Positions 1 through 16,751 of a DNA stretch of 64,000 nt are shown here, in pieces. The DNA lies in assembly GCA_025057645.1 (NCBI GenBank), contig JANXBJ010000005.1:73676-137675 (forward strand), in the 5' to 3' direction. The first letter of the stretch is position 1. Every line of letters starts with the position of its first letter. The position numbers were made by a program, and so were the translations under genes. A model generated the notes under the pieces. The model was given only the letters and a program-made list of their open reading frames with translations, did not search any database and had not been told where the DNA came from. This DNA comes from Anaerolineales bacterium. GTDB taxonomy: Bacteria > Chloroflexota > Anaerolineae > Anaerolineales > UBA4823.

Positions 1-918
1 AATCCGCCAGACCTTTGTTTTTCGTTGCAATTGAGTCCTCCCTCCGAGGGCGAAATTCAAATTTGGAGACCACAGAAACCTTTCTCGGAGACCGAGAAGC
101 GTTTTCTGCAAATCTTCATTTCTCAAGCCGGTCTGGCGTTAGAACGCCTGCGCTTGAGGCATGCTGAGATTCAAGCCAAAATCTTAGCCGAGAGCGATCG
201 TCTGAAGGCATCGCTGCTCTCGTCTGTATCGCACGAACTGCGCACGCCATTGGCAGCGATCAAGGCTGCTATCTCAAGCTTGAACAGCCCGAGCGTCGAA
301 TTGGATACAGACAGTCGCAAGGAATTGATGGCGATGATCGAAGAAGAAACCGATCACCTGAATCTTCTGGTCGGCAATCTGCTGAATATGTCTAGGTTAG
401 AAGCCGGAGCACTCACCCTCGAGCGTTCGTGGAGCCGTTTAGAGGACATCGTGCGCAGCGCAACGGAGAGGACGCGCGTTTACTCGAAAGACCATCAGGT
501 TGTCGTTCAATTCCCGCCCGGATTGCCCGATCTCTATGTAGATTATCTGCTGATGGAACAGGTCTTGATCAACTTGATTAACAACAGCCTCAAACACTCG
601 CCGGCGGGGAGTAAAGTGGAAATTGTTGTGTTTCCGCCGGAGACTGACCAAGTGAGAGTCGAGGTGCGCAACCAGAGCCCGGCGATTCCGCCCGAATATC
701 TGGAACGCATCTTCGATAAGTTCTTTCGCTTAGAACAACCCCAGCGGGTGCGCGGCATAGGGCTTGGGTTGGCTATTTGCAAAGGGATTATTGAAGCCCA
801 CGGAGGAAAAATTTGGGCAGAGAATCGAGAGCGGGGCATTGCTTTCGTTTTCACTGTACCTTTACAGAGCAACGCAGTGGTTTCTGAAGTGGTTCAGCTA
901 AAAGAGGGCGAGCTTTGA
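1..918 (+). CDS. kdpD: Sensor histidine kinase, C-terminal portion (KdpD-like); 5' end lies outside the window
   Basis: The frame is open from nt 1, with no stop before the listed ORF at 25. H-box SVSHELRTPLAAIKAAI, N-box LINLINNSLKHSP and G-box GIGLGLAICKGIIEAHGG are present. The stop overlaps the TTG start of the KdpE-like regulator (TTGA at 915-918). Confidence 0.8.
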   Translation, partial: NPPDLCFSLQLSPPSEGEIQIWRPQKPFSETEKRFLQIFISQAGLALERLRLRHAEIQAKILAESDRLKASLLSSVSHELRTPLAAIKAAISSLNSPSVELDTDSRKELMAMIEEETDHLNLLVGNLLNMSRLEAGALTLERSWSRLEDIVRSATERTRVYSKDHQVVVQFPPGLPDLYVDYLLMEQVLINLINNSLKHSPAGSKVEIVVFPPETDQVRVEVRNQSPAIPPEYLERIFDKFFRLEQPQRVRGIGLGLAICKGIIEAHGGKIWAENRERGIAFVFTVPLQSNAVVSEVVQLKEGEL

Positions 919-1607
919 ATCCAGAAGTTCATATTCTCGTCATTGATGATGAACCTCAAATCCGTCGCGCCCTGCGCACGATTCTGGCGGCGCATCACTT
1001 TCGAGTGAGTCTGGCGAGCAGCGGCGAAGAAGGCTTGGCGTTGGCAGCCAGCTTACAGCCCGATTTGATCATCCTCGACCTCGGTTTGCCGGATCTGGAT
1101 GGGATTGAGGTGTGTCGGCGATTGCGGGAATGGAGCCAAGTTCCCATTATCGTCCTTTCGGTGCGAGATAGCGAACGGGATAAGGTGATTGCCCTCGATC
1201 GCGGCGCCGATGACTATTTGACCAAGCCGTTTGGGATCGAGGAATTGTTAGCCCGCATTCGCGTTGCCTTACGCCATGCTGCTCAATCGCCCAGAGAGGG
1301 CACAAAAGTGGTGCGCAGCGGTGATGTAGTGATCGACCTCGTCAATCATCGGGTTACCCGGCGGGGTGAGGAAGTTCGGCTAACCTCAACCGAATATAGG
1401 TTGCTGGCTTACCTTGCCCGCCATGCCGGAAAAGTGCTCTCACACCGCACCATCCTTGCCAATGTCTGGGACCCTGCCGATGCCGATCGCCTTGAATACC
1501 TGCGAGTCTACATTCGACAGTTGAGGAAAAAGCTGGAAGAAGACCCCGAAAATCCCAAGATCATCGTCAACGAACCTGGAATCGGCTATCGCCTTTACGC
1601 CGAGTGA
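915..1607 (+). CDS. kdpE: OmpR-family response regulator, KdpE-like
   Basis: Receiver domain (ILVIDDE, DLIILDLGLPDLDG, KPF) plus winged-helix output. The C-terminal block YLRVYIRQLRKKLEEDPENPKIIVNEPGIGYRL closely resembles E. coli KdpE as I remember it. Confidence 0.8.
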   Translation: MNPEVHILVIDDEPQIRRALRTILAAHHFRVSLASSGEEGLALAASLQPDLIILDLGLPDLDGIEVCRRLREWSQVPIIVLSVRDSERDKVIALDRGADDYLTKPFGIEELLARIRVALRHAAQSPREGTKVVRSGDVVIDLVNHRVTRRGEEVRLTSTEYRLLAYLARHAGKVLSHRTILANVWDPADADRLEYLRVYIRQLRKKLEEDPENPKIIVNEPGIGYRLYAE

Positions 1608-1786
1608 ATTTTTATTCTTTTTTTATCCCCTCTCTTCCCCTCTTTATTCATTCTTAATTCCTTTGCGCTATAAGCAGCTAGGATGCAGATCATCCAGACG
1701 GGTTCTCCCTTTTTGAGGGGCCGACGTTTTATCGATTCGAAAGAGTTAGTAAACAAGTTCTCTTCAGTTGATAGAAAGAAGGCGAG

Positions 1787-2881
1787 ATGCTTCATACAAC
1801 TGCAAAACACGACCTGATCTTCCACATCGAGAAGAGCTTTTACATCGAGGGGGAGCAAAAAGGGATGCTTTGGCGCAATCAAACTAAAACCGTTCGGCAA
1901 CAGTTCGTTGCCCAGGCGGAGCAAATTTTGCGGGCGATTCAAGAAAATCGCCCTGTCCTTGAGTTCTCTTTACCCGAAAAAGTGATTCTCATCGATCCCT
2001 TTACCCATGCCTACCGCGAAGAGCCTGTTCCTGTGCGCCATCGTCGCCAGACGATTCGGCGTCGCTTCTTTCGCCGCGGCCGATCGATCCTATCGGACGT
2101 GCTTCAACGCCTGAGCGATCTGCAAAGCTCCTCATATCTGTCCCTTTCTTTGTCCGCAAACATCCTGCGCTATTGGATCGCCCGCCTTTGGCTCAACCAA
2201 ATTCCCGAAGGAGAACCCTTTCCGCAGAGTCCATCGCCACAGTCGCCTTCCGCAACAACAGTTGAGCCTCGAAGAGGTTTCCCGGAGTGGTTGCTTTTCG
2301 ATACCAAGGGAGACCCGCTCTTTTCCACTCCAGAAGAAGTTGAGCAACGCATCCGTGCCATCAAGTCCGCCCTGCAAAGCCTTCTCTCTGTGATGGCTAT
2401 CGATCCAAGCATTGTGGAAGAAGAAGCGTTTCGTTCCCGCTATACAGCTTTAGTGACGCAATGGACGGAACAGGGACGGTTATATTCTGAACATCTCACC
2501 AAAGGGATTATCTCGACCATCCATCAACGCAAAAGTCAACACACTCTGAACCGCGGTTTGTCCATCCATCTTCCCTACTTTGACGATCAATTACTTGAGA
2601 TCGAGTACCTTGATCTGGAGGTAGTACCACCGGGTCGCATCCCCTTTGAGGAGGTTTTCCTCTTTGAAGCCGTCCAAAAAGCTAAACAACAGGTATCCAA
2701 GGATGGGAAGCTAAGCCCAACCACACGCCAACATTTGCTCGCCGAGTTGGAGCTTTTGGAGTCCTCCTGTTCAAGTTGTCCCTCCTACTTACCGGTAGGA
2801 GTTTTATCTCCCTATTATCACTGGGTCAAAGCCTCTCCTTCTAGCGATGTTCTACAAAACAGCTCAAAATCCGACGGTTGA
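1787..2881 (+). CDS. Hypothetical soluble protein, partner of the KimA-like transporter (copy 1); paralog of 49661..50812
   Basis: 364-aa ORF with no TM segments and no domain I recognise. It shares collinear blocks with the 383-aa ORF at 49661..50812 (TLNRGLSIHLPYFDDQ vs NLNRGLTIRLPYFDDQ; LSPTTRQHLLAELELLE vs LNPTTRKYIIKQLKMLEE). The transporter gene follows 24 nt downstream. Confidence 0.7.
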   Translation: MLHTTAKHDLIFHIEKSFYIEGEQKGMLWRNQTKTVRQQFVAQAEQILRAIQENRPVLEFSLPEKVILIDPFTHAYREEPVPVRHRRQTIRRRFFRRGRSILSDVLQRLSDLQSSSYLSLSLSANILRYWIARLWLNQIPEGEPFPQSPSPQSPSATTVEPRRGFPEWLLFDTKGDPLFSTPEEVEQRIRAIKSALQSLLSVMAIDPSIVEEEAFRSRYTALVTQWTEQGRLYSEHLTKGIISTIHQRKSQHTLNRGLSIHLPYFDDQLLEIEYLDLEVVPPGRIPFEEVFLFEAVQKAKQQVSKDGKLSPTTRQHLLAELELLESSCSSCPSYLPVGVLSPYYHWVKASPSSDVLQNSSKSDG

Positions 2882-2905
2882 AACTATATAAACGAGGTAG
2901 GAAAG

Positions 2906-4687
2906 ATGTTGTTCTCCATAGCTCTCTTGTTGCTCTTTGTCTTTCTCTCTCTAAAGGGTGCTCCAAAAGAGCGCGAAGAAGACGCGCATGTTCATGGTGC
3001 GGGCCAAATCGGCGTAATAGCCGCTTTAGCCCTCTTCGGAGTGGATTACTTCACTTCGTTCTATTACGCCACCGGCGAAATGATGAGCGCCTTGCACCCC
3101 TATGGCTTACAAAAGTGGGGCTATATCTCCACGGCGGTTATTGCTTTTGCCAATATTGTGTTTGGACTGCTTTATATGTACTCCTTGGGCATCTTCAATG
3201 AGGGTGGTGGGTCTTACACGGCTTCGATGCGCTATCTCTCCCCCGGCATAAGCCTCGTTGTAGCCGTCTTGCTGATCCAAGATTATATTTTTACGATAGT
3301 CGTCTCCACCCTCTCGGGCGCCGACCAAATGCTCTCGATTTTGAATATGTACAATGTCAATTGGATTTGGCACTTCTTGATCGGCGCCGCCCTTGCCAGT
3401 GTGACTTACTATCTGACCATCCGCGGCCGAGGGGAGTCCGCCCGAGTGGTCTTTACCCTGCTGGGTATCTTCTTCTTCTTGACCCTGACCATGTTGATCG
3501 GGTTGATCATCGCTCACGAGAAAGGTGTCCCCCCTGTGCCCTATCATCAAGAAGTCGAGCAGGTTTCTTTAGGACGCGCCCTGTTTCACCTGCTCACGGC
3601 ATCCATGAAAGGGTTGGTCGCCCTGACAGGGCTAGAAGCTATGTCTAATGGGATCCAATTCGTTAAGAACGAAGATTTTGCATTGGTGCGTTGGGGCAAG
3701 CAAAAACTGCCTCAGTTACGCTCTCTGTGGAACTTTTACAGTGGCAAATCTGGGATTGGGCGGTTCGTCCAAACATCTTTCCTGTTCTATGGCGGGTTGA
3801 CGACCTTGATGCTCACCACCTTCGCTATCCGCTTCAATGTCTTTGACGGGACGTTGGGCAGAACTCTGGTCGGGAACCTGGCGTATATCGGTTTTGGTCA
3901 GCTTCCGGGTGGAATTTTCCTTTTTTGGGTCTACCAAATCTTAGCCGTAGCCATGCTTGCTGCTGCATCAATGACCGCTTTCCAGGACTTGCAAGCGACT
4001 GCTTGGCGAGATGTCGCCATTGGCGAAATCCCTGAAATCGTGGTGTATCGCAATGCCCAAGGAACCTTTACCCGCTCGGTGACGGCCGGCTTTATCGTTG
4101 CGGTGATCATTCAATTGTTAGTGCGCGGCCGCACATCTGCAGCCGTTCCGTATTATGGGATTGGGGTGTTTGTTCCGATCACTGCCATGGGACTGGCGAT
4201 CCGCCGGCATATCCTGAAGAACTACACCGGAAAAGCCCGCACTTGGGGGAGCTTGGGCGCCAGTTTTTCGGTTGTGCTTTCTTTCCTAGTGTTCGTTGGG
4301 CAGATTGTAGGCAAATGGGAGGAAGGCGGTTGGGTTGTCTTGATTTCCTTCTCGGTGTTGATCTTGGTTGCCCACGCGCTCCTCATCTCCCCGATCGGTT
4401 ATCGCTCGCCGCAACAGATTTACCGCATCGTACGCCAAAAGGCGCGCGTACAGGGTGCCATGGCGACCATTGTCGAATGGCAATCGCTGAAAATGCAGGA
4501 ATATCGTTATGCGATCCTGGTCGGCATCACCCGTGCCCTCGAGCTATTCGGCGTTCGCCGGCCGGTTCGCTTTGAACCTCCACCGCCGGCCGGGGATTAC
4601 ATCGAGGCTCTTCATGATGAACAGTCGGGTATCGATATCCTACAACCCTATCTCAATGAATCAAACCTGGCGCCGCTTCCGAAATAG
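2906..4687 (+). CDS. Polytopic APC-superfamily transporter, KimA-like (putative K+/cation transporter), copy 1
   Basis: 593 aa with many hydrophobic helices. Motifs FNEGGGSY, LIQDYIFTIVVSTLSGADQ, LTGLEAMSNG and VPYYGIGVFVPIT resemble what I recall of B. subtilis KimA (GGGAY, LVDYILTVAVSISAG, LTGVEAISN, YAVGVFIPFT). Paralog of 47808..49625. Confidence 0.6.
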   Translation: MLFSIALLLLFVFLSLKGAPKEREEDAHVHGAGQIGVIAALALFGVDYFTSFYYATGEMMSALHPYGLQKWGYISTAVIAFANIVFGLLYMYSLGIFNEGGGSYTASMRYLSPGISLVVAVLLIQDYIFTIVVSTLSGADQMLSILNMYNVNWIWHFLIGAALASVTYYLTIRGRGESARVVFTLLGIFFFLTLTMLIGLIIAHEKGVPPVPYHQEVEQVSLGRALFHLLTASMKGLVALTGLEAMSNGIQFVKNEDFALVRWGKQKLPQLRSLWNFYSGKSGIGRFVQTSFLFYGGLTTLMLTTFAIRFNVFDGTLGRTLVGNLAYIGFGQLPGGIFLFWVYQILAVAMLAAASMTAFQDLQATAWRDVAIGEIPEIVVYRNAQGTFTRSVTAGFIVAVIIQLLVRGRTSAAVPYYGIGVFVPITAMGLAIRRHILKNYTGKARTWGSLGASFSVVLSFLVFVGQIVGKWEEGGWVVLISFSVLILVAHALLISPIGYRSPQQIYRIVRQKARVQGAMATIVEWQSLKMQEYRYAILVGITRALELFGVRRPVRFEPPPPAGDYIEALHDEQSGIDILQPYLNESNLAPLPK

Positions 4688-5000
4688 CCCGAAGTTGGAG
4701 CAAAGCTCGCTCCTAAGCTCGGTGAGGGGTCTGAGAGGTGCAATCTAAAGGCCCCTCACCCCGCCTTTGGAGCAATCTGAGGCGGTGAGCTGTGGCCTAG
4801 TGCTGCATTTTGCGGCGCGTTTGGGTCTCCTCAGAAAGGGAAAGGTAGAGGGGTCAGAAGCTCTAGCGCTCGACCTCCTGGCGTGGGGAACTGGCCAGCA
4901 GGCTGAGAAGTGTAACTGGGGTGCGCCTGACGCTGCGCTGCGGCAAGCAGGGGATGTCAAGAAGCCCCCAAGACTGCTTTCGGCCTTCTAAAAGCTGAGA

Positions 5001-6311
5001 TTAGGAGGCCCCTTGGCTCAGAGCTTTAGCGCGCTCGGCCATTTGGTTGCGCAAGGTGTGGACATCGTGGTCGATGGTGAAAAGCGCACCGATATAGATC
5101 ACGAAGCACAGCAGCCAGGCGGTGGTACAAATGACCAGAATTGCCTGCCCCAGACCGATGGCTACCGCCACTGCACCGGCCAGTGCCGGCGCCAAGGCAG
5201 CACCGCTGTTTTCGATGAAATACTCGACAGCCTGAGCCGTGCTGCGCACTTCGGGAGCGGTGACATCGAACACAGTGGCGATCACATTGGCCGAGGCAAA
5301 CGGCATAAAGACCGCCGTCAGGGCCATCATGACGAAGAACTGACCTCGTGCCTCAACCGGGGTGGTTAAGGCCAGCACTAAAAAGATTGCTCCCATAATC
5401 ACCCCGAACGAGGAGACCAAAATACGCCCCTTATTCGTGCGCTTGAACAGCCAATCACCCAGGGCGCCTCCGATCAAATAGCCCGAAGCTAAAATGAGGA
5501 TCACCGGTGCCATCGTGAACAGCACCGACTCGTTATCGTATCCCCGCTCACGCATGAGGTAGCCGAAGAAGAAGTAGGTGATCACATTCCAAGGGAAGAC
5601 GCCGAAGAAACCTTGAACGAAGATAAACCACATGGTCCGTTTTCTAAAGATCTCCTTGGCTTCCGCCCACGAGAAGCGGAACTGTCCGATCTCCGTCATT
5701 CCTTCAAATTCGGGCTCGGCTTTGCCGCGCGGCATGTCTTTGACGCCGAGGAAGATGGTGAGGGCGATGAGAATCCCTAAGGAGCCGGTGAGGTAGAAGA
5801 CCGAACGCCAGCCGCCGATCGCCGGTGCCACCATCAAGGCGAGGATCATGCCCAGAAGATAGCCCAGCGGCTGGGCGAGTTGCAAAATGCCGTAGATTTT
5901 GCCGCGCAGGTGAGGGCCGAAATAGTCCGCGATCAAACTGTATAAACCCGGGTAGGAGGAGTCGTCAATGCCGGTTGAAGCCCGAGTAGCCAGAAAGGCC
6001 GGATAAGTGCGTACGATGGCACTCAGCCAAGTGGTTGATCCCCAGATCAAGGAGGCCAATGCCAGCAGTTTGTTGCGCGCATAGCGGTCATAGAGATACC
6101 CCCAAATCGGGTAGAGAAGGGTTGCGACCACCAGCGAGCCCGAGTTGATCAGGCCCCATTGGAAGTCGTTTAGTCCAAAGGTTTGGCTAACCGGCAACTG
6201 GAGCGAACCGATCATGAGTTTGTCGGTCTGATGAAGGAGCATAAAGGAGAAGAAAACTAAGACCACGAACCAGCGGTATCGGGCGAACTTCGTGTCCATG
6301 TCCGACCTCAT
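5001..6311 (-). CDS. MFS transporter
   Basis: 436 aa with about 12 hydrophobic helices in a typical MFS layout; a D-R-x-x-R-like loop (YDRYARNK) follows TM2. Confidence 0.7.
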   Translation of the reverse strand: MRSDMDTKFARYRWFVVLVFFSFMLLHQTDKLMIGSLQLPVSQTFGLNDFQWGLINSGSLVVATLLYPIWGYLYDRYARNKLLALASLIWGSTTWLSAIVRTYPAFLATRASTGIDDSSYPGLYSLIADYFGPHLRGKIYGILQLAQPLGYLLGMILALMVAPAIGGWRSVFYLTGSLGILIALTIFLGVKDMPRGKAEPEFEGMTEIGQFRFSWAEAKEIFRKRTMWFIFVQGFFGVFPWNVITYFFFGYLMRERGYDNESVLFTMAPVILILASGYLIGGALGDWLFKRTNKGRILVSSFGVIMGAIFLVLALTTPVEARGQFFVMMALTAVFMPFASANVIATVFDVTAPEVRSTAQAVEYFIENSGAALAPALAGAVAVAIGLGQAILVICTTAWLLCFVIYIGALFTIDHDVHTLRNQMAERAKALSQGAS

Positions 6312-6478
6312 AGATTAGGAATACAGCTAGAGTTTAGTCCAAAACTTAGGGAATGTCAAAGTTGGATCAAGGCGTTTTTTCCGGCGAGCTGCCTTATTAA
6401 GAAGTTGCACAAGAAGCAAGCCCGTGTTAAAATTGCATCCAAACGAGTAAAGTTTTGTTCATCCGTAGGGAAAATCTC

Positions 6479-7066
6479 ATGGCCGAAGAAATGGTTGAGG
6501 TTGTAATTGACAGTATTCGGGTCAGCCTAATGTCTCAGCAGCGGATTGTGATCCTCCGTGAGATCAATGCTGAGCGCTATCTCCCGATTTGGATTGGCGT
6601 GTACGAAGCCGAGGCTATCACGATTGCCTTGCAGGAAGTGGAGGTAGCCCGGCCTCTGACGCACGATCTCCTGAAAAACATATTCCATGTCTTCAATGCG
6701 CGCATCTTACGGGTGGAAGTGGCTGCGCTGAAGGATGACACCTTCTACGGCAACATCGTTGCCGAAATAAACGGGAGAACGGTGCACATTGACGCTCGAC
6801 CTTCGGACGCCCTGAATTTGGCGGTGCGCGCTCGGGTGCCCATCTATGTCGCCAAGTCGGTGATGGACGTTGCCGGTGTCGTTCCGGAAAAAGACCTACA
6901 GCGGGAGACCGAGGAAAGCCTGCCGGCGGCCACTCCCTCCAGCCCTAAGCCGGTTCCAGAAGAGGACCTCACGGATGAACGGTTATCGGTCTTTGAAGAT
7001 TTCTTGGAGAAACTCGACCTGGACAAGGGTCCAGAGGAAGACGATAGCGAGGAAGAAGACAAGTGA
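6479..7066 (+). CDS. Bifunctional nuclease family protein (DUF151/BFN) with acidic C-terminal tail
   Basis: Blocks RIVILREINAERYLPIWIG, EAEAI, RPLTHDL and DARPSDALNLAVR are typical of DUF151. I prefer the ATG at 6479 (MAEEMVEV) over the upstream TTG at 6455. Confidence 0.7.
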   Translation: MAEEMVEVVIDSIRVSLMSQQRIVILREINAERYLPIWIGVYEAEAITIALQEVEVARPLTHDLLKNIFHVFNARILRVEVAALKDDTFYGNIVAEINGRTVHIDARPSDALNLAVRARVPIYVAKSVMDVAGVVPEKDLQRETEESLPAATPSSPKPVPEEDLTDERLSVFEDFLEKLDLDKGPEEDDSEEEDK

Positions 7067-7129
7067 AATCTGGGCCCGATTGTAGAACCTAGCACTTGCT
7101 GAGATCATAGGCAAAAGAGAAGCAAGCCA

Positions 7130-8506
7130 ATGGCCTCTTTTTACCCCTCGGAGGAGACCACCGCTCCCGGTCCTCTGCTTGTCCCTCACAACCGGGAGGC
7201 AGAGGAGGCTGTCTTAGGCTCGGTATTGATCAACCCCGAGGCCTACTTTGAGGTGGCCAGTTTTCTCCGCCCCGAGGATTTTTACCTCATCCGTCATCGC
7301 TGGATTTGGGAGTGCTTCACGCACCTTCACGAAACCCGGACGCCCATCGACTACCTTACCGTGACCGAGGAACTAGCGCGTCGCGGTCAATTGGAGGAAG
7401 TAGGAGGAGCTGCATATCTCTCCTACTTGATCACCAATGTGCCAACCTCCCTGCACGCTCAGGCCTACGCTCGTATTGTCGAGGCCAATTCTATCCGCCG
7501 GCAGATGATGAGTGCTGCCAATGAGATTGCTAAGCTGGCAGTCAAGGAAGACACCACGGTCGAAGACCTGATGGACGCTGCGGAGAAGGCCATTTTTGGC
7601 GTCAGCGAGCGGCGGCTCGAGCGAGACCTGAAGACCCTTCGTGCTGTGTTAGGCGAGTATTACGATCAGCTCGAAGCCATCGTCCTGCGCAGTGAGGAAA
7701 CTGTAGGCATCCCGACCGGCTTTATCGATCTTGACCGTCTGTTGGTGGGACTGCAGCCCTCGGATTTCATTATTGTCGCCGGCCGTCCCGGGATGGGAAA
7801 AACGGCTTTTCTGCTCTCGGTGGCGAAATACGTGGCGCAGGTCAAGCGCAAGCATGTGGCCATCTTTTCGATGGAGATGTCGAACGAGCAATTGGTGCAG
7901 CGGTTGTTGTCTCAGGAGACGGGCATTGACTCCCAGAAGCTGCGCACCGCTCGGTTAAGCGCCGAGGAGTGGCAAGTGTTGACTCAGGCGATCGAATCCC
8001 TGCGCAACGTGCAAATCTTCTTGGATGACACTCCGGCTCTAACGCCACTGCAAATGCGCACCAAATGTCGCCGCCTGCACCTTGAGTTCGGCTTGGACTT
8101 GGTGCTGGTGGACTATCTCCAGCTCATGAGCAGTGGGATGCGCCACGAAAACCGCGTTCAGGAAGTCTCCTATCTTTCGCGCAACATGAAGATCCTTGCT
8201 CGAGAGTTGAATGTGCCGGTGATGGTCGCAGCTCAGCTCTCCCGAGCCGTGGAACAGCGCGCCGATAAGGAGCCACAGCTCTCAGACTTGCGCGAGAGCG
8301 GCAGCTTGGAACAGGACGCCGATGTGGTGATTTTCCTCCATCGGCCTGCGGAGTATAAGAGCGATCCGCTAAGGCAAAACATCGTCGAACTCAAAGTGGC
8401 AAAACATCGCAACGGCCCGGTCGGCAGTTTGGAATTGGTCTTTCGCGAGAAGATCACCAAATTTGAAAACGCCGCCACGCGGGTGATTGACCTAAATCAG
8501 ATTTAG
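7130..8506 (+). CDS. dnaB: Replicative DNA helicase DnaB
   Basis: N-terminal PHNREAEEAVLGSVLINP, Walker A GRPGMGKTAF, Walker B LVLVDYLQLM, and later QLSRAVEQR and EQDADVV. Confidence 0.95.
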   Translation: MASFYPSEETTAPGPLLVPHNREAEEAVLGSVLINPEAYFEVASFLRPEDFYLIRHRWIWECFTHLHETRTPIDYLTVTEELARRGQLEEVGGAAYLSYLITNVPTSLHAQAYARIVEANSIRRQMMSAANEIAKLAVKEDTTVEDLMDAAEKAIFGVSERRLERDLKTLRAVLGEYYDQLEAIVLRSEETVGIPTGFIDLDRLLVGLQPSDFIIVAGRPGMGKTAFLLSVAKYVAQVKRKHVAIFSMEMSNEQLVQRLLSQETGIDSQKLRTARLSAEEWQVLTQAIESLRNVQIFLDDTPALTPLQMRTKCRRLHLEFGLDLVLVDYLQLMSSGMRHENRVQEVSYLSRNMKILARELNVPVMVAAQLSRAVEQRADKEPQLSDLRESGSLEQDADVVIFLHRPAEYKSDPLRQNIVELKVAKHRNGPVGSLELVFREKITKFENAATRVIDLNQI

Positions 8507-8511
8507 ACAAG

Positions 8512-9231
8512 ATGTCAGCCCTTAGAGTGTTCTCCGGTTTTTCCGAGGGCGCACGCCACACAGTCCCTCTGCCGACCGAGTTCTTTCGAGACCTGCTGGC
8601 AGAGGTTGACGATCTCAACGAGCTGAAGGTGATCCTTTACACCTTTTGGTTCTTGCACCGACAGGGTGGGGCGGTCCGTTATATCCGCGCAGTGGATTAT
8701 CAGAGGGATGCTGCTTTTATGGCCGGCCTCCTCTGCGAGGGCAGCCATCCGCAGCGGGCTCTGTCTCGGGCTTTGCAAAGGGCAGTGGAACGCGGGGTTC
8801 TGTTGCGCGGCTTGGTCCGCAGCGGAGAGGACGAGGTAGAGTTATTCTTCTTAAACACTTCCGTGGGTCGAGCAGCGCTTCAGGCGATTCAGGAGGGAAG
8901 ATGGCGCTTCACCGAAAGTCGGGACTATCCGGTCGAGGTCGAGGAGGAACTGCCCAATATTTATCGTCTCTACGAGCAACACATTGCGCCGCTCACGCCG
9001 ATGATCGCCGAGAGGTTGCGAGAAGCAGAGGAGACTTATCCCCCTCAGTGGATTGAGGAAGCCATTCGTATTGCGGTCGAGAACAACGCGCGAAGCTGGC
9101 GGTATGTAGAGGCTATTCTGAGGCGTTGGAAGGAAGAAGGCAAAGGTGAGCGAAAGGCTGGAGCAGATCCTCAAGAAGCTCTCCGAAAGTACTCCGAGCA
9201 GTGGCGAAAGCCGAGTGGAAAAACCCGCTGA
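8512..9231 (+). CDS. DnaD-domain replication protein
   Basis: The C-terminal block IYRLYEQHIAPLTPMIAERLREAEETYPPQWIEEAIRIAVENNARSWRYVEAILRRWKEEG matches the DnaD/DnaB_2 C-terminal domain pattern. The gene lies between dnaB and a DnaC-like loader. Confidence 0.65.
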   Translation: MSALRVFSGFSEGARHTVPLPTEFFRDLLAEVDDLNELKVILYTFWFLHRQGGAVRYIRAVDYQRDAAFMAGLLCEGSHPQRALSRALQRAVERGVLLRGLVRSGEDEVELFFLNTSVGRAALQAIQEGRWRFTESRDYPVEVEEELPNIYRLYEQHIAPLTPMIAERLREAEETYPPQWIEEAIRIAVENNARSWRYVEAILRRWKEEGKGERKAGADPQEALRKYSEQWRKPSGKTR

Positions 9232-10576
9232 GAGCCGAAACGGAGGGGCAGAAGAAAGACACCTCGGGGAGGAGAACTGCCCAATTTGTCAGGGCCTCGG
9301 ATACATCCGCTGGGAAGTGCCTCTAGGGCATCCGAAGTTCGGGAGGGTGGAGGTTTGCGAGTGCCGTGCCTCCCAAAGCCGCCAGCAGATTTTTCAGCGT
9401 CTCTATGCCCACAGCCACCTTGACCACCTCAGTCACCTCACTTTTGAGAACTTCCACCCACGCGGACGGGCCGGCTTGTACCCTCAGGAGGCGAACTCGA
9501 TTGAATTGGCTTACCGGCAGGCGCGCACCTTCGCCGAAACCCTTCAAGGCTGGTTATTCCTGCAAGGGGGATACGGATGTGGGAAAACCCACTTGGCTGC
9601 GGCGATCGCCAACACGGCAGTGCAGCATCACGTCCCCACCTTGTTTCTCACTGTGCCCGACCTCCTGGATGGCCTGCGCTCGACTTTATCCGAGGCAGAG
9701 AACCGCTTTGAAGAGCACTTCGAAGAGATTCGCACTGTTCGCCTGTTAATTTTGGACGATTTTGGTACCCAGAATGCCACTCCGTGGGCACAGGAAAAGT
9801 TGTTCCAAATTATGAATTACCGCTATGTCAATCGGCTACCCACGGTGATCACGACCAACTTGCGCCTCGAGCAGATTGAGGGACGCATCCGCTCACGCCT
9901 GGAGGACCCGGAGTTGGTGACCAAAGTGGTGATCCTTGCGCCGGACTATCGGCGTCCCACCGCTGAATTGGGAATGCACGAATTCGCCATGTTTCCCAAA
10001 TTGCAACGCTGCACCTTCGCCAATTTTGATTTGCGCAAGGACGAGGGGTTGCCCGCCGAGGCCTTGCGCGAGCTGGAAGCTGCTTTTCGGGCGGCGCGCG
10101 AGTTTGCGCAGAACCCCCTTGGTTGGATTGTCTTCAACGGCCCCTCGGGCAGCGGGAAGACCCATCTTGCAGCGGCTATTCACAATTACCGCCGCGATGT
10201 CGGACAGCCCTCGCGCTTCGTGGATGTCGGAGAGTTGCTCAACGCCCTGCGAGCCACCTTTAGCCCTTTCAGCCCGGAGAGTTTGGATGAGCGCTTTGAG
10301 GATGTGCGTCGCGCTCCGCTCTTAATTCTGGACGACCTAGATAGCTATATGAGCTCTCCCTGGAGCATCGAAAAGTTATATCAGATCATCCATTTCCGTT
10401 ATTTAGCCGAGTTGCCCACCGTGATCACCCTGGGCAGGTTGCGCGACCAACTCGAACCGCGTCTGCTAACTCGCATTGAAGACCGGCGACTCTGCCGCAT
10501 TTACCCGCTTTCCGTGCCCTCCTATACTGCAGTTGAGCGTGAACCCATTAAGCCAAGCCGTCGAAGGCAGAAGTAA
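9146..10576 (+). CDS. DnaC/DnaI-like helicase loader with N-terminal Zn-ribbon and two tandem AAA+ loader modules
   Basis: CPICQGLG...VEVCEC Cys4 motif. Module 1: FENFHPR, GGYGCGKTHLAAAIAN, LLILDDFG, TVITTN. Module 2: FANFDLR, GPSGSGKTHLAAAIHN, LLILDDLD, TVITLG. The GTG start at 9146 overlaps the DnaD-domain gene; an in-frame GTG at 9215 is an alternative start. Confidence 0.8.
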   Translation: MSERLEQILKKLSESTPSSGESRVEKPAESRNGGAEERHLGEENCPICQGLGYIRWEVPLGHPKFGRVEVCECRASQSRQQIFQRLYAHSHLDHLSHLTFENFHPRGRAGLYPQEANSIELAYRQARTFAETLQGWLFLQGGYGCGKTHLAAAIANTAVQHHVPTLFLTVPDLLDGLRSTLSEAENRFEEHFEEIRTVRLLILDDFGTQNATPWAQEKLFQIMNYRYVNRLPTVITTNLRLEQIEGRIRSRLEDPELVTKVVILAPDYRRPTAELGMHEFAMFPKLQRCTFANFDLRKDEGLPAEALRELEAAFRAAREFAQNPLGWIVFNGPSGSGKTHLAAAIHNYRRDVGQPSRFVDVGELLNALRATFSPFSPESLDERFEDVRRAPLLILDDLDSYMSSPWSIEKLYQIIHFRYLAELPTVITLGRLRDQLEPRLLTRIEDRRLCRIYPLSVPSYTAVEREPIKPSRRRQK

Positions 10577-10603
10577 GATCATCCTTCCCAGAAGGAGTGT
10601 GTC

Positions 10604-11650
10604 ATGAGTTCAGAATCCCCAGAGGCCGAAGCCTTGCCTTTGCCCCCTTTTTATGACCCTCAGAAGGTCGGCGAAGTGTGGCGTGTACCCTATCAGCAAC
10701 GCGCCGAAGAGGCCCGCCAGTGGGCAGCCCGCCATCATATTGCGCCGGCCCAATGCGATACCTTCAAAATTGCTTTGGTGGCCATTGATGTGCAAAATAC
10801 TTTTTGTATCCCGGAATTTGAGCTGTTTGTCGGTGGACGTTCCGGAATGGGCGCCGTGGAGGATAATCGCCGCCTGTGCGAGTTCCTCTACCGTTACCTT
10901 CATCGCATCACCCGGGTAGTAGTTACGTTAGATACCCACCGCGCTTTCCAAATTTTCCACCCGGTCATGCTGATTAACGAACAGGGTGAACACCCCGGCC
11001 CGGTGACCCTGATCACTTTGCAGGACGTGCAAAGTGGCAAATGGCGGTTCAATCCCCAAGCCGCCTATAGCCTCGGAATTGACGAAGCGTATGGGCAGCA
11101 GCAACTGCTTCATTATGTGGAAGAGCTGGCCAAGAAGGGAAAATACGAGCTGACCATTTGGCCCTATCATGCCATGTTGGGTGGCATCGGTCATGCGCTG
11201 GTGTCTGCCTTCGAGGAGGCGGTCTTCTTTCACACCATTGCCCGCAGTAGCCAGGCTCATTTTGAGATCAAGGGCGATGCTCCTTTGACCGAAAACTACT
11301 CTGCCATTCGGCCGGAGGTGGCGGAAGATATGTGGGGGAGGCCCTTAGCCGAACCTCACCCTTACTTTTTCCAGCTCCTTCAGGATTTCGATGCTATCCT
11401 TGTTGCAGGTCAGGCAAAGAGTCATTGTGTCAACTGGACCGTCGGGGACTGGTTGCAAGAGATTCAACGCATTGACCCTGCTCTGGCTTCCAAAATTTAC
11501 CTCCTTGAAGACTGCATGTCCCCGGTAGTGGTGCCGAACGTCGTTGACTACACCGAGATGGCCGAGGCGGCTTTTGCGCGCTATGCCGAGGCGGGGATGC
11601 ATCGCGTGCGCACTACTGAGCCTATGGACCGTTGGTTAACGACAGATTAG
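10604..11650 (+). CDS. Isochorismatase/nicotinamidase-family cysteine hydrolase (long form)
   Basis: [12 protein letters not shown] is the family signature strand. A later GQAKSHCV block has a Cys in the expected nucleophile position. An AGGAG SD precedes the ATG. Confidence 0.55.
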
Positions 11651-11667
11651 AGCCGAATTGTGCGCTA

Positions 11668-11696
11668 TTGACAAGCCTCGGCTTTTATAGGATACT
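11668..11696 (+). promoter_or_regulatory. Sigma70-like promoter candidate (TTGACA, 17 nt spacer, GATACT)
   Basis: TTGACA at 11668-11673, a 17-nt spacer, then GATACT at 11691-11696. It sits in the intergenic region after the isochorismatase-like gene. Confidence 0.4.
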
Positions 11697-11838
11697 CCAA
11701 ACGGCCATTTCTCGAGAGAGTGGCCTCCCTCCTTCGCTACCCCACCGAAGAGGAGGTGATGTCGATGACAGATAGTAGTACCTTACGAAGCGCTGCGGCA
11801 TCCCTCCTCGGTGTAGGATAGATGACCGCAGCGCGCAG

Positions 11839-11872
11839 GAGACCGTCCGAAACGGCGGTCTCTTGTTTTGTT
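11839..11872 (+). terminator. Intrinsic terminator candidate
   Basis: GAGACCG (11839-11845) pairs with CGGTCTC (11856-11862), with inner CCG/CGG pairs, followed by TTGTTTTGTT. Confidence 0.6.
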
Positions 11873-11919
11873 CGCGGTATAATCAAGGTGTGTCCGTGAT
11901 TGCGGGTCATAGCTAGGAT

Positions 11920-12339
11920 ATGGGGCAGCGAAAAATTCGCGTGTTAATTGCTAAGCCGGGCTTGGACGGTCATGACCGGGGAGCTAAGGTGGTCGCACGA
12001 GCTCTGCGGGATGCCGGCATGGAAGTAATTTACACGGGCTTGCGCCAGACTCCGGAAATGATCGCCGAGGCTGCTTTGCAAGAAGACGTGGACGTGGTCG
12101 GCCTCTCCATCCTCTCCGGGGCGCACATGGCCCTTGTGCCGCGGGTTCTGGAACTCCTACGGGCGCAGGGTCAGGAAAACGTCAAGGTCTTTGTGGGAGG
12201 GATCATCCCCGACGAAGATGTGCCGCGACTGCTGGAAATGGGCGTGGCCGGCGTTTATGGTCCCGGCACCTTGACAGAGCAGATCATCCGAGACATCTAC
12301 GCTGCGGTGGGTGAACTCGATCGGCCACTTCGCTCTTGA
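11920..12339 (+). CDS. Methylmalonyl-CoA mutase small subunit (B12-binding domain)
   Basis: [40 protein letters not shown] contains the DxHxxG cobalamin-binding signature. 139 aa. Confidence 0.9.
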
Positions 12340-12366
12340 GCAACCTGCTAGAGTTCGTGAGGTTGG

Positions 12367-13350
12367 ATGTCTTTAGCGGAATCGGTCTTGCAGGGTAACC
12401 GTTTGGCTTTAGCTCGGCTTCTGAGTCAAGTAGAAAACGAGACGGAAGAGGGGTTGGCGGAGTTAAATCGGCTTTTCCCTTATACTGGCAAGGCCCACCT
12501 TGTCGGAATCACCGGCGCGCCCGGGAGCGGGAAGTCCTCTCTGGTCACTCAACTGGTCTATGCCCTTCGCCACCCCGCTCCGGAGCAAAAGCCTGTCCGC
12601 GTCGCCGTAGTGGCTGTCGATCCATCCAGTCCCTTCAGTGGGGGAGCGATTCTGGGAGATCGAATCCGGATGCGAGAGCTTGCCGGCGACCAGGGTGTTT
12701 TCATTCGTTCGATGGCCTCACGGGGCGCTCTGGGGGGAGTCGCCGCCAGCACTGCTAATCTGGTTAGCGTTCTGGATGCTGCCGGCTTTGAGATCGTCCT
12801 CATCGAGACCGTTGGGGCAGGGCAAACGGAGGTAGAAATTGCCCGTCTTGCCCATACGGTCATTGTGGTTGAGGTGCCCGGTTTGGGAGATGATGTTCAA
12901 GCCATCAAAGCTGGCCTTTTGGAGATCGCCGACATCATCGTCCTCAATAAAGCTGACCAGCCCGGGGTGGAGAATGCCGAGCGCGCCCTGCGTACGATGC
13001 TGGAACTGGCCTCCGCTCGAGGAACGCTTTCCGGAAACGCACAACCTGCCTCGCCGCAATGGACTCCACCGCTCTTGCGCACCGTAGCTACTGAAGGGCG
13101 GGGGGTGCAGGCGGTGGTCGAAGCACTCTACAATCATCGCAACTTTCTGTGCCAGAGTGGTGAGTGGGAACGACGCGAGCGTTTGCGCTTTCAAACACAG
13201 CTAGAAAACTTATTTCAAGCGGCATTGATCAAGCGATTGCACGAGACTGTTTCGGCGACCGAATATGGGCATATTTTAGACCGAATCGTCTCACGTCAAA
13301 TTTCCCCTTGGAAAGCGCTTGAGATTTTGTTGGATGGAGTGGTGCAATGA
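12367..13350 (+). CDS. meaB: Methylmalonyl-CoA mutase accessory GTPase MeaB/ArgK
   Basis: P-loop GITGAPGSGKSSL, then AVDPSSPFSGGAILGDRIRM, IETVGAGQ and NKAD. Confidence 0.9.
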   Translation: MSLAESVLQGNRLALARLLSQVENETEEGLAELNRLFPYTGKAHLVGITGAPGSGKSSLVTQLVYALRHPAPEQKPVRVAVVAVDPSSPFSGGAILGDRIRMRELAGDQGVFIRSMASRGALGGVAASTANLVSVLDAAGFEIVLIETVGAGQTEVEIARLAHTVIVVEVPGLGDDVQAIKAGLLEIADIIVLNKADQPGVENAERALRTMLELASARGTLSGNAQPASPQWTPPLLRTVATEGRGVQAVVEALYNHRNFLCQSGEWERRERLRFQTQLENLFQAALIKRLHETVSATEYGHILDRIVSRQISPWKALEILLDGVVQ

Positions 13351-14339
13351 GAAACCTCCACGGCCACCGCGAAATCAACCTATACGGAGACATCAAGTTG
13401 TTTGCCGGGACCGCTTGTCCAGCCCTAGCGGCGGACATCTCAAACTATTTGGGCATCCCCCTAAGCGGCAGGGATGTGATTCATTTTCCAAACGACAATT
13501 TGTGGGTCAAGCTGCACAAGAGCGTGCGCGGTCAAGATGTCTACGTAATTCAGACCACTTCTGCGCCTGTCCATCAGAACCTAATGGAGCTCTTGATCAT
13601 GTTGCAGACGATGCGTCTCGATTCCGCCGGACGGGTCACAGCGGTTATCCCTTACTTGTGTTATTCTCGTTCGGATAAAAAGGATAAACCGCGCGTTCCG
13701 ATCACCGCTCGCTTGGTCTGCGACATGATCGAAATCGCCGGCGCCGACCGCTATATTACCCTTGACCTCCATGCAGGGCAGATCCAGGGCTTTTTCTCCA
13801 TTCCCGGGGATGTTTTGTCTGCCTTTCACATTCTCACCGCCTACGTGCGGCGCAAGCAGCAACATATGCGAGACCCGGTCGTGGTTGCTGCCGATTTAGG
13901 CTTTGCCAAGAAAGGACGAAATTTTGCCGCCAACCTGGACGTCCCCATTGCTTTTATTGAGAAGCGCCGCACCGGCAAGGAAGACACTCCCGAGGCGTTG
14001 ACCTTAATTGGTGACGTCAAAGACCGTGATGCGATTATCGTCGATGACGAGATCGATACGGGCAGTTCGATGGTCTCGGCTGTGCATCTGGTTAAGTCGA
14101 TGGGGGCCAGAGATGTTTACCTGGTATGCGTTCACCCACTCCTCTCCAAAGATGCCGCAGAACACATCGCAGCTCTGCCGATTAGGGAGTTCATTACCAC
14201 GGACACGATTCCCCTTACGGAGTACAAATACCAGCTTCTCAAGGATAAAATCACCGTGCTCTCTGTTGCGCCTTTGCTTGGCGAAGTGATCCGCCGCGCG
14301 AACCAAGGGCGTAGCGTAGGAGAGATGTTCGACGAATAG
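13347..14339 (+). CDS. prs: Ribose-phosphate pyrophosphokinase
   Basis: KLFAGTACPALA, YLCYSRSDKK, LDLHAGQIQGFF and IVDDEIDTGSS. There is a 4-nt overlap with meaB. Confidence 0.9.
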   Translation: MRNLHGHREINLYGDIKLFAGTACPALAADISNYLGIPLSGRDVIHFPNDNLWVKLHKSVRGQDVYVIQTTSAPVHQNLMELLIMLQTMRLDSAGRVTAVIPYLCYSRSDKKDKPRVPITARLVCDMIEIAGADRYITLDLHAGQIQGFFSIPGDVLSAFHILTAYVRRKQQHMRDPVVVAADLGFAKKGRNFAANLDVPIAFIEKRRTGKEDTPEALTLIGDVKDRDAIIVDDEIDTGSSMVSAVHLVKSMGARDVYLVCVHPLLSKDAAEHIAALPIREFITTDTIPLTEYKYQLLKDKITVLSVAPLLGEVIRRANQGRSVGEMFDE

Positions 14340-14342
14340 CGC

Positions 14343-15167
14343 ATGCCCGAGTTACCCGAAGTCGAATCTATCGCCGCCCGCTTGAGGTCGGGTAACGCCC
14401 AATCTCCACCTTTGCTGGGGGCGCGCATTCTCTCTGCTAGGGTGTTCTGGCAGCGCAGTGTGGCAGAACCCCCGGCCGAAATCTTCGTCCAGAGGCTACA
14501 AGGACAAACGATTTGCGAGATTCGCAGGCGGGGGAAGTTCTTGGTATGCGAGCTTGAGGGCCTGACGCTCCTAGTGCACTTGCGCATGAGCGGGGATTTG
14601 TGGATGGAGCCTTCCTCGCAGCCGGTGGCCGCTCACTGCCGTGTAGCTCTTAGCTTGGACTCGGGCTACCGCCTCACCTTTCACGATCCGCGCAAGTTTG
14701 GCCGGATGTGGTTGCTCGAAGATCCGGAGAGGGTATTAGGAGAATTAGGGCCTGAACCCTTTGACCCTGGGCTGACGTCCGAAGCGTTCTTTGAGAAGCT
14801 CTCCTCCGTCCGTCGTCGGCTCAAGTCTTTGCTACTTGACCAACGTTTTCTCGCCGGTTTGGGCAATATTTACACCGACGAAGCACTACATTGCGCCGGT
14901 TTACATCCCCTTACGCTGTCCGCTCAGGTGAGTCCCAGCCAGGCAGAGCGCTTGTTAGCCTGTATCCGAGCCGTGCTGGCTGAGGGCATTCGTCGCAGCG
15001 GGGCGAGCATCGATTGGGTCTATCGAGGTGGAGATTTCCAGAACTATTTTCGGGTTTATAGGCGCACCGGGCTCCCCTGTCCGACTTGTGGAGCACCGAT
15101 CCGGCGCATCCTGCTCGGTCAGCGCGGGACGCATTTTTGCCCCCAGTGTCAAGTGCTCCCTTCTTAG
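14343..15167 (+). CDS. mutM: Formamidopyrimidine-DNA glycosylase
   Basis: N-terminal MPELPEVE, an H2TH region, and a C-terminal zinc finger CPTCGAPIRRILLGQRGTHFCPQCQ. Confidence 0.9.
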   Translation: MPELPEVESIAARLRSGNAQSPPLLGARILSARVFWQRSVAEPPAEIFVQRLQGQTICEIRRRGKFLVCELEGLTLLVHLRMSGDLWMEPSSQPVAAHCRVALSLDSGYRLTFHDPRKFGRMWLLEDPERVLGELGPEPFDPGLTSEAFFEKLSSVRRRLKSLLLDQRFLAGLGNIYTDEALHCAGLHPLTLSAQVSPSQAERLLACIRAVLAEGIRRSGASIDWVYRGGDFQNYFRVYRRTGLPCPTCGAPIRRILLGQRGTHFCPQCQVLPS

Positions 15168-15979: not shown

Positions 15980-16079
15980 ATCACTCGATGGTCGATAAGG
16001 AATTTGGCACTGTAGACCTCAGCCGGCTGGGGGCGTTGACAAATCCCCTTCGAGGCAGCCCTTGTCCCGGTGGCGGGGT

Positions 16080-16751
16080 TCAGTTTTGAGCTTGGGTTTC
16101 GAGAACTCGCTTGAGGTGTTTCACGGCCAAGCGTGGGCTGGTAAGGATGGGAATACGCTTCTCCTCAGGATCGAGTGTGTCGACAGCGCGCGCCATAGAG
16201 GCTTGGGCTAATAAAATAACGTCATTTCTTTCCATCAAGTCGAGTAGGCTCCGGCGCACAATCTCATCGTGGGTTCTTACATCCCCGCTGAACAAGGCTG
16301 CGTAAGCACCCTCGCAGAGTCGGGCCTCCACCTCCACCTCAAGCTGATGAAACGCCGCCCGCCGATAGACGAGGTCCGTGGTTGGCTTTAAGGTCGTGAC
16401 AGCAGTAGCGGCGATGCCAATGCGTTTCCCTAGATGCAAGGCCTCGTCTACCATCGGTTGGTCGATCTTCAATACCGGAATACCGACGAGAGGCTGAGCA
16501 GCATCAACACAAGGGGAGATTGAGGAGCAAGTACATTGAACCGCGCTTGCGCCGTAGCGCTCGGCTGCGATCACGTGGTCGGCAACCCTTTGATAGACGA
16601 AGGGCGAAAGCCCTCCTTGAGCCAGCACAAGCTTTAGCAGCATTTCATCGGCCACATGGGTTGGCTCTACATTCGGAAGCAGCTCTCGAGAGAGCTCGTC
16701 GAACAGTCTCACCAGGGCTGGAACCGTATGGAGGAAAACCACTTTTTTCAT
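16080..16751 (-). CDS. Asp/Glu/hydantoin racemase-family protein
   Basis: 223 aa with a two-lobed pattern. A Cys-containing strand VQCTCSSISP appears in the first half and ILLAQASMA in the second. Family-level call only. Confidence 0.5.
   Translation of the reverse strand: MKKVVFLHTVPALVRLFDELSRELLPNVEPTHVADEMLLKLVLAQGGLSPFVYQRVADHVIAAERYGASAVQCTCSSISPCVDAAQPLVGIPVLKIDQPMVDEALHLGKRIGIAATAVTTLKPTTDLVYRRAAFHQLEVEVEARLCEGAYAALFSGDVRTHDEIVRRSLLDLMERNDVILLAQASMARAVDTLDPEEKRIPILTSPRLAVKHLKRVLETQAQN

Follow-up and report, generated by a model that had tools for sequence, protein, structure and literature searches.

An orphan soluble protein encoded beside a KimA-type K+/H+ symporter homologue in Anaerolineales: a candidate accessory subunit within a Chloroflexota K+ cluster

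What is the role of a soluble protein that has no recognisable relatives and yet is encoded directly ahead of a membrane transporter? The question is raised by a 64,000-nt stretch of DNA from an Anaerolineales bacterium (JANXBJ010000005.1, positions 73,676-137,675, forward strand; hereafter the window), which carries two copies of a two-gene cassette, each composed of an open reading frame (ORF) for a soluble partner protein, here named P, followed by one for a KimA-type membrane protein, here named K. The copies are referred to as P1/K1 and P2/K2. Transporters of the KimA/KUP type rank among the major K+ importers of bacteria, fungi and plants; to our knowledge, how they are regulated has been understood in two cases only, that of c-di-AMP in Firmicutes and that of phosphorylation in plants. 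Sediments, wastewater sludge and hot springs all harbour Chloroflexota in abundance. On balance, and with the reservations weighed below, we favour the view that P is a cytoplasmic accessory or regulatory subunit of K, a KimA-type K+/H+ symporter that would be induced by K+ limitation. The cassette genes are the following.

1787-2881, plus strand: P1, soluble orphan partner of 364 amino acids (aa), a fast-evolving subtype without the acidic loop
2906-4687, plus strand: K1, KimA-type K+/H+ symporter homologue of 593 aa, assigned by its PDB sequence match, fold and residues
49661-50812, minus strand: P2, soluble orphan partner of 383 aa; belongs to the major subtype, in which residues of about 150-228 form a conserved acidic loop predicted to be disordered
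47808-49625, minus strand: K2, KimA-type transporter paralogue of 605 aa, 69% identical to K1 and with the same motifs

P1 and K1 lie in the same reading frame with a gap of 24 nt, and P2 and K2 are separated by 35 nt. A preliminary description, made from the sequence alone, had placed this two-gene layout at 1787-4687 and its opposite-strand copy at 47808-50812, and both sets of coordinates are exact. K1 and K2 are collinear (69% identity over 593 aa, with two gaps), and the 72 identities that had been counted without gaps over their first 100 residues were recovered to the letter. P1 and P2 share 30% identity (E 5e-40). At the DNA level the K genes are 68% identical and the P genes have only a 45-nt island in common; a tblastn search of the window recovered these two copies of P and of K and nothing more, not even remnants. 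Among the blocks said to be shared by the two P proteins, LNRGL[ST]I.LPYFDDQ and L.PTTR are present in both, whereas the leading N given for the former belongs to P2 only (P1 reads TLNRGL) and the spacing written as '....L..LE' was inexact. The K motifs listed in the same description, namely GGGSY (GGGAF in K2), DY..T..VS...G, LTGLEAMSN and YYG.GVF.PIT, were all found.

The association of P with K was followed in 80 P-selected genome loci, the best 80, comprising 95 P genes and with the cassette genes all on one strand. Since this genome sample is biased towards P, we added 80 metagenome loci retrieved with a K-based query, which brings the comparison to 160 loci. The gene after P is K in 85 of the 95 cases, a P-type ATPase in eight, another P in one and a contig end in one. 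In the K-selected sample, the gene before K is P for 79 of the 87 K genes with enough upstream sequence, the remainder being preceded by KdpE (5), by K (2) or by another gene (1), and when either side is counted 169 of 175 K genes (97%) adjoin a P gene. The distance from the P stop to the K start has a median of 21 nt, with several overlaps of 1-4 nt, and the pair as a whole can be tandemly repeated in PKPK and PKPKPK arrays. Given that the same adjacency is seen in 160 independent loci, the arrangement is far beyond chance, and the co-localisation in other genomes on which the proposal of a dedicated partner had been made to depend is both tight and reciprocal. A genetic link between P and K is hereby established; we infer that the two proteins bind each other and that P has a regulatory role.

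The nature of K can be approached through its kinship to KimA of Bacillus subtilis, which is the sole PDB sequence match of K1 in a phmmer search (E 1.2e-17, over K1 31-256 and 320-493). An AlphaFold (AF2) model of K1, built on 23 homologues, has a mean predicted local distance difference test score (pLDDT) of 70.9 and a predicted TM-score (pTM) of 0.73. In Foldseek the KimA structures 8b71, 8b70 and 6s3k occupy ranks 1-3 for this model (E 1e-13 to 4e-12, TM-score about 0.6), while the amino-acid transporters AdiC and ApcT trail at 5e-9 or worse, about four orders of magnitude behind KimA; K thus does not group with the amino-acid permeases. Structures of heteromeric transporters of the LAT1-4F2hc type also appear among the fold matches. 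No Pfam or NCBIfam family was found for K1 or K2 even at E values up to 1, the thresholds of AA_permease_2 (PF13520) and K_trans (PF02705) being left unreached, and a precomputed PF13520 match exists for a minority of K homologues.

The residues on which transport by KimA depends have been defined by experiment: D36 and Y43 are indispensable to the binding of K+ and to the outer gate, the affinity is set by T121, S125 and Y377, proton coupling requires E233, and D117 is the trans-inhibition site (PMC6994465). Through the phmmer alignment, D36, Y43, T121, S125, Y377, E233 and D117 correspond to K1 D47, Y54, T130, S134, Y417, E244 and D126, respectively, all of which are invariant in a 23-sequence K alignment and are also found in K2; the KimA pair Y118/N237 is likewise kept as K1 Y127/N248. 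Since the functional residues are invariant without exception, K holds everything known to be needed for KimA-type K+/H+ symport. The sole PDB match, the first three fold matches and this set of residues together bear out the KimA likeness that had first been recognised from the motifs.

The resemblance does not extend to the regulatory part of KimA, in which c-di-AMP is bound by a PPAT-like, dimer-swapped C-terminal domain and touches R337 in the loop between transmembrane helices (TM) 8 and 9 (PMC10284832). The match between K1 and KimA stops at K1 493 and KimA 451, with no sequence match further on in the phmmer alignment, and the remaining C-tail of K1, about 100 residues that are highly conserved and basic, is modelled as two helices and not as an alpha/beta domain. 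By column count on the same alignment, KimA R337 corresponds to K1 E377, a residue that is invariant in K and lies inside an 'AIGEIPE' loop. The AF2 model also has an extra N-terminal hydrophobic helix that is specific to the K family, and the cytoplasmic region between TM6 and TM7 is about 25 residues longer in K than in KimA, with many invariant positions. No ydaO riboswitch or other Rfam element was detected near either cassette. Given that the transport core is that of KimA and that the c-di-AMP domain is missing, K is, as judged from its sequence, placed within the KimA subfamily of KUP K+/H+ symporters as a branch of its own, and it would be expected to transport K+.

P is soluble, having no hydrophobic segment of transmembrane quality and a negative grand average of hydropathy (GRAVY). 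Neither P1 nor P2 has a significant match in Pfam, NCBIfam, PADLOC or PHROGs, no PDB sequence is matched by a single P sequence or by a 47-sequence profile, and no weak Pfam match recurs across all 47 members of the alignment; the ORF that had been described as lacking any recognised domain thus has no known family in the libraries scanned, and no well-known unrelated one claims it. The protein is encoded in 338 species-level genomes, the best 80 of which are all Chloroflexota, mostly Anaerolineae or Anaerolineales. The family numbers at least 3622 clusters at 90% identity, every one of them annotated as 'hypothetical protein', and an exhaustive profile search of 1.84 billion representatives yielded 370 P clusters at 50% identity. 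The best 150 of these 370 representatives are stand-alone proteins of at most 422 aa without fused domains, full-length members having about 320-420 aa and the shorter ones being fragments. A candidate 1006-aa P-K fusion in locus L066 was rejected, as a stop codon is present between P and K.

The AF2 model of P2, a confident one (pLDDT 80.8, pTM 0.77), runs from a helical hairpin (21-61) through four strands (66-99) and a set of helices (110-148) to a disordered loop (150-228), which is followed by long helices (229-297), a beta-hairpin (305-327) and further helices (336-376). Foldseek found no match for this fold in the PDB (best E 1.3, TM-score below 0.2) or in BFVD (best E 0.13), and the KimA chains within the searched PDB library were matched neither by the model nor by the P profile. 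Since no Foldseek match was obtained, P is neither the cytosolic domain of KimA in detached form nor a protein of the RCK or KefF type, and, going by the model, it is a previously undescribed family and fold. An internal duplication, suggested by the repeated helix-hairpin/beta/helix pattern, was considered and dropped (hhalign probability 0.05 between the N-terminal and C-terminal halves). An HrpE/FliH/V-ATPase subunit E identity for P1 (Pfam E 0.17) was also discarded, being seen in only two of 47 family members and lacking fold support, and so was a defence-system or phage origin, PADLOC and PHROGs being negative and BFVD giving no fold match.

Two subtypes of P can be distinguished, of which that of P2 is the major one. 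The P1 subtype, homologous to the P2 family, includes about 11 proteins found only in close relatives of the window; its members have lost most of the acidic loop and P1 is only 30% identical to P2. In the P2 subtype the loop at about 150-228 is acidic (isoelectric point 4.2) and has a pLDDT below 50, yet its sequence is strongly conserved, with the pattern …EGEEIPxIP…ESAITAxTDAIAEE…GRGELLVPYVPxARRFYLPQWVAFD. In the model it looks like a motif that folds on binding.

A protein with so few clues to its function could share an operon with K without taking any part in transport, as an enzyme or a stress protein for K+-limited or osmotic conditions. Neither homology, nor fold match, nor fusion links P to a transporter component, and its conserved polar loop motifs could be catalytic. 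However, a reciprocal adjacency of about 90% over 160 loci, together with the P-K tandems, is much stronger than is usual for genes that share an operon because of a common condition, and P never occurs outside the cluster context in the 80 best genome loci, so that this explanation appears quite improbable to us. The same tight upstream position, with its probable translational coupling, could also belong to a protein that helps the 13-helix K to assemble or to stay stable, be it a dedicated chaperone or an aid to membrane insertion, and that would be absent from the working transporter. The family-specific extra N-terminal helix of K speaks for such a factor, and P evolves far faster than K (30-60% against 62-93% identity), as is common for chaperone-like partners. 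Against this, a dedicated chaperone would hardly need the size and elaboration of P, a two-lobed protein of 370 aa whose loop motifs are invariant, and the homologous KimA, Kup and other APC transporters are generally known to need none; we therefore give a role in biogenesis little credence. In K-P-K arrays one P appears to serve two K proteins, an arrangement that fits a subunit and a biogenesis factor alike.

If P acts on K, the surroundings of the cassettes should be of interest as to when and with what other proteins it does so. The further features of the two loci are listed here.

25-918, plus strand: KdpD-like sensor histidine kinase, C-terminal part (the N-terminus lies outside the window), with HisKA and HATPase_c
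915-1607, plus strand: KdpE-like OmpR-family response regulator, with Response_reg and Trans_reg_C; its gene overlaps the kinase gene by 4 nt
1609-1631, plus strand: KdpE-operator-like direct repeat TTTTTATTCTTTTTTTATCCCCT, about 160 nt upstream of P1
44980-47811, minus strand: P2-type cation P-type ATPase of 943 aa, with Pfam Cation_ATPase_N, E1-E2_ATPase and Cation_ATPase_C
44317-44973, minus strand: RCK protein, first of a pair, with TrkA_N and TrkA_C
43636-44313, minus strand: RCK protein, second of the pair, with TrkA_N and TrkA_C; last gene of the operon, with a convergent PolX gene beyond it

The operon of copy 2 is tight, with a 4-nt overlap between the K2 stop and the ATPase start, a 6-nt gap between the ATPase and the first RCK gene and a 3-nt gap between the two RCK genes. 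With D, E, A and T standing for the KdpD-like kinase, the KdpE-like regulator, the P2-type ATPase and an RCK protein, the commonest layouts are PKATT (22 loci), DEPKATT (7), DEKPKATT (7) and DEPKPKA (4), and the usual cluster elsewhere runs KdpD-like, KdpE-like, one to three P-K pairs, P2-type ATPase, RCK, RCK. Since relatives hold D-E-(P-K)n-ATPase-RCK-RCK as one contiguous cluster on a single strand, the window is a split version of it, with D-E-P1-K1 at 25-4687 on the plus strand and P2-K2-A-T-T at 50812-43636 on the minus strand, and this describes the two copies better than the 'inverted paralogous pair' of the preliminary description.

The best NCBIfam match of the window kinase is KdpD, at 183 bits against a cutoff of 1123, and that of the regulator is KdpE, at 256.6 bits against a cutoff of 325; as neither reaches its curated cutoff, the pair is accurately called 'KdpDE-like'. 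Related kinases are short, with 498 aa in L002 (5700-7196) and 509 aa in L023 (5122-6651), and consist of DUF4118, HisKA and HATPase_c without the KdpD N-terminal domain (PF02702) and the Usp domain, apart from a sub-threshold GAF match in L023. L002 is the closest relative for which an upstream flank is available; its kinase gene comes after a DNA methylase gene and an HNH gene, and that of L023 after a divergent FHA/DUF11 gene. The kdpFABC genes that had been expected just upstream of the window are therefore unlikely to be there, being absent beside the kinase in these two related loci. The K+-related setting that had been claimed for both cassettes is nonetheless real, as attested by the KdpDE-like pair, the KdpE-type operator, the RCK proteins and a genuine kdp locus in the more distant L161 (JAUQXA010000064.1, 306 kb, 1-17821). 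There the cassette stands between KdpC and full-length KdpD/KdpE, in the order KdpC, DUF4118 protein, AA_permease_2 protein, KdpE-like, K, KdpE-like, P, K, full-length KdpD, KdpE, with RCK-RCK-ATPase on the opposite strand and three KdpE paralogues interleaved with KimA-like genes. Because this cassette lies inside a kdp locus, the P-K family is firmly tied to K+ homeostasis. The Planctomycetaceae label of L161 may be a binning error, since all other loci are from Chloroflexota.

The window ATPase is about equally similar to bacterial Ca2+-ATPase and to the Na,K-ATPase alpha subunit and falls below every NCBIfam equivalog cutoff. In every locus with a full-length copy that was scored, the ATPase gene follows K or, in a minority, P; the RCK pair is conserved after it, and the ATPase-RCK-RCK trio is kept across Anaerolineae loci. 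No TrkH/KtrB gene was found in the operon, among the large ORFs of the window or downstream in L023, so that the two RCK proteins might act as regulators of the ATPase or of the KimA-like transporter instead of a Trk/Ktr channel. In about 15 loci (L021, L023 at 7488-7916, L027, L040, L051, L068, L071 and about eight more) a conserved gene that we call 'X', of about 140-250 aa, stands between KdpE and P; its longer forms have C-terminal hydrophobic helices, it has no Pfam match, so that a Usp-like identity was discarded for want of Pfam support, and it is absent from the window, where the spacer measures 180 nt. Elsewhere in the window there are one tRNA gene (21865-21951, minus strand), the sole Rfam match, and a 729-aa diguanylate cyclase with triple PAS and GGDEF (24833-27022, plus strand), which shows c-di-GMP signalling in this organism and is unrelated to the cassettes.

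With regard to control, the 180-nt spacer between kdpE and P1 contains the direct repeat TTTTTATTCTTTTTTTATCCCCT, with half-sites TTTATT and TTTATC and a 5-bp spacer; TTTATTCTTTTTTTATC of this operator-like repeat starts at 1611. The Escherichia coli KdpE operator is CATTTTTATACTTTTTTTACACCCC, with half-sites TTTATA and TTTACA that are also 5 bp apart (PMC3264566), and the repeat in the window is identical to the E. coli KdpE footprint at 19 of 23 positions, with the same half-site architecture. The pattern TTTAY-N6-TTTAY matches here and nowhere else in the 64-kb window, both strands counted, where shuffling predicts 0.15 matches. The repeat is conserved in L001-L004 and also in the distant loci L012, L015 and L031, in which the flanking sequence is unrelated. 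Over the 160 loci, the pattern was found upstream of K after KdpE in 9 of 16 cases, of P after KdpE in 9 of 51, of P after K in 6 of 51 and of the ATPase after K in none of 118, with 0.5% of background windows containing it, and it is thus enriched upstream of the first cassette gene after KdpE. A scan of 1400-5200 for sigma-70 promoters and terminators gave no promoter-like site, and terminator-like sites were at background level. The repeat and its placement suggest that copy 1 is a KdpE-type operon induced by K+ limitation, with KdpE as its probable regulator. At other loci where KdpE and P are only about 80 nt apart (L018, L028, L033, L037, L043, L052, L066, L075, L094, L099, L116 and L120), another conserved element, TAGAGTAGAGTACAATTA, with a TACAAT hexamer resembling a -10 box, takes the place of the KdpE-box-like repeat. 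Since it occurs where P follows KdpE closely, it suggests a second mode of cassette transcription.

Several observations weigh against P being a subunit of a K+-limitation-induced symporter. The strict KdpE-like repeat precedes only the said 9 of 51 P genes that follow KdpE, and none was found upstream of P2. The confidence of the K1 model is only moderate (pLDDT 70.9). About 20 K genes are without a P gene of their own upstream and carry no sequence signature that would set them apart from paired K genes; they do not form a clade, 14 of the 20 are then followed by P, and a search for specificity-determining positions between K with and without their own upstream P found none. No natural P-K fusion was found among the best 150 of the 370 P representatives. 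The correlation of P and K distances is weak (mirror-tree, Pearson r = 0.14, reached by 0 of 999 permutations), although nothing can be read from this comparison, K sequences being nearly saturated (62-93% identity) and those of P lying at 30-60%. The most conserved P motifs, LNRGLxIxLPYFDDQ, IPAGRIxF and PTTR, lie in loops and abound in Arg, Asp and Gln, and they could just as well mark a site for a small molecule or for catalysis. Eight of the 95 P genes stand directly before the ATPase with no K between, and in about five loci (L007, L030, L055, L062 and L076, the last with a K gene 4 kb away) no K is in reach, the layouts of these loci being PATT, PA and PAATTK. Given these last cases, P can persist without an adjacent K.

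These latter observations would be accommodated if P were a regulator or sensor of the whole K+ cluster, for instance a cytoplasmic sensor of K+, a nucleotide or osmotic state, with the ATPase and/or the two RCK proteins among its targets beside K, or with the ATPase as its main target. In addition to P genes placed straight before the ATPase and to PATT loci with no K nearby, the commonest layout, PKATT, puts P at the head of a five-gene operon, and the invariant loop motifs of P resemble a ligand site. The acidic loop of P2, conserved though predicted to be disordered, is what one would expect of a binding motif, and it is missing from the P1 subtype, whose DEPK cassettes have no ATPase or RCK genes downstream. 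However, the P-K tandem does not depend on the ATPase, as can be seen from PKPK, PKPKPK and DEPK loci without one; 97% of K genes adjoin P, while the ATPase is preceded by K 59 times and by P eight times. Moreover, the P proteins next to E in DEPKPKA loci keep the length and similarity of P2 (L018_1, 380 aa) although they are not beside the ATPase. We consider a role of P in the cluster as a whole to be unlikely, if less so than either of the explanations discussed before.

Under the subunit hypothesis that we prefer, each cassette would encode a two-protein K+ uptake unit. K would import K+ by proton coupling, as a member of the KimA branch of the KUP/APC family. Its machinery for K+ binding, gating and H+ coupling is complete; it has lost the C-terminal PPAT-like domain by which c-di-AMP shuts KimA off and carries in its stead three highly conserved, family-specific cytoplasmic elements, namely an enlarged TM6-7 loop, the invariant acidic 'AIGEIPE' loop between TM8 and TM9 and the basic two-helix C-tail. 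P, presumably co-transcribed and probably translationally coupled with K, would dock on the cytoplasmic face of K at these three elements, and would take over the regulatory and/or dimer-scaffolding job of the c-di-AMP domain of KimA, gating K+ import according to the K+ or energy state of the cell. The promoter of copy 1 would be driven by the adjacent short KdpD-like/KdpE-like system through the KdpE-type operator and would, by virtue of this control, be induced under K+ limitation. Copy 2 heads an operon with the P2-type ATPase and the two RCK proteins, the two loci together representing the split Anaerolineae K+-homeostasis cluster. A stronger version, in which P is a stoichiometric cytoplasmic subunit with a new fold in the first heteromeric KUP/KimA system, replaces, as a sensor encoded by a gene of its own, the c-di-AMP domain both as off-switch and as dimer scaffold, and is under a short KdpDE system that drives a secondary transporter and not KdpFABC, is offered tentatively, and may well claim too much.

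How far this arrangement departs from known systems depends on the system chosen for comparison. KimA (YdaO of B. subtilis; PDB 6S3K, 8B70 and 8B71) shares with K the LeuT/APC-fold core, the functional residues and the expected response to low K+. However, K is only about 20% identical to it and has the extra N-terminal helix and the larger TM6-7 region; KimA has the PPAT-like c-di-AMP dimer-swapping domain and R337, where K has the basic two-helix tail and the invariant Glu; the K cassettes have a KdpE-type operator instead of a ydaO riboswitch; and K is nearly always paired with P, whereas no partner of KimA, and no ancillary subunit of KimA/KUP transporters, is described in the literature that we searched. 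Compared with KdpD/KdpE and kdpFABC of E. coli, the similarities are the KdpDE-like pair beside the cassette, the operator architecture (TTTAYN half-sites, 5-bp spacer, 19/23 positions) and the cassette of L161 inside a kdp locus. The differences are that the presumptive target is K with P and not the KdpFABC pump, that the kinase is short, without the N-terminal and Usp domains, that kdpFABC is not adjacent in L002 and L023, and that the regulators score below the cutoffs.

As to the partner itself, soluble ancillary subunits are a known kind among K+ transporters, with the RCK/KTN proteins TrkA, KtrA and KtrC acting with TrkH/KtrB, and KefF/KefG with KefC/KefB. P is similar to them in concept, as a separate cytoplasmic protein from an adjacent, co-transcribed gene that would gate or activate a K+ transporter. 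It differs in that neither its sequence nor its structure resembles theirs or those of KdpC/F and that its fold is not of the RCK, Rossmann or flavodoxin-like type, K belongs to another superfamily (APC/KUP), and the association of P with its transporter is a predicted one. An APC-fold transporter with a non-homologous accessory subunit also exists in the pairing of SLC7 light chains with SLC3 heavy chains (LAT1-4F2hc), but SLC3 is a single-pass extracellular glycoprotein linked by a disulfide, P is soluble and cytoplasmic, and the substrate is another. What is new here is the P family, which in sequence and fold is unlike any of these subunits.

The P-K system is confined to one phylum, and its central mechanism is one that we infer. 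Even so, the reading proposed here offers a starting point for assigning a function to a family whose thousands of sequences have no annotation, Pfam entry or structural relative. It also suggests that the control exerted by KdpDE-type systems can extend beyond KdpFABC to further K+ transporters, which matters when the K+ physiology of Chloroflexota is inferred from their genomes. Finally, the K branch is widespread in this phylum and has kept the transport machinery while dropping the c-di-AMP module, and this points to an alternative control of KUP-type K+ uptake.

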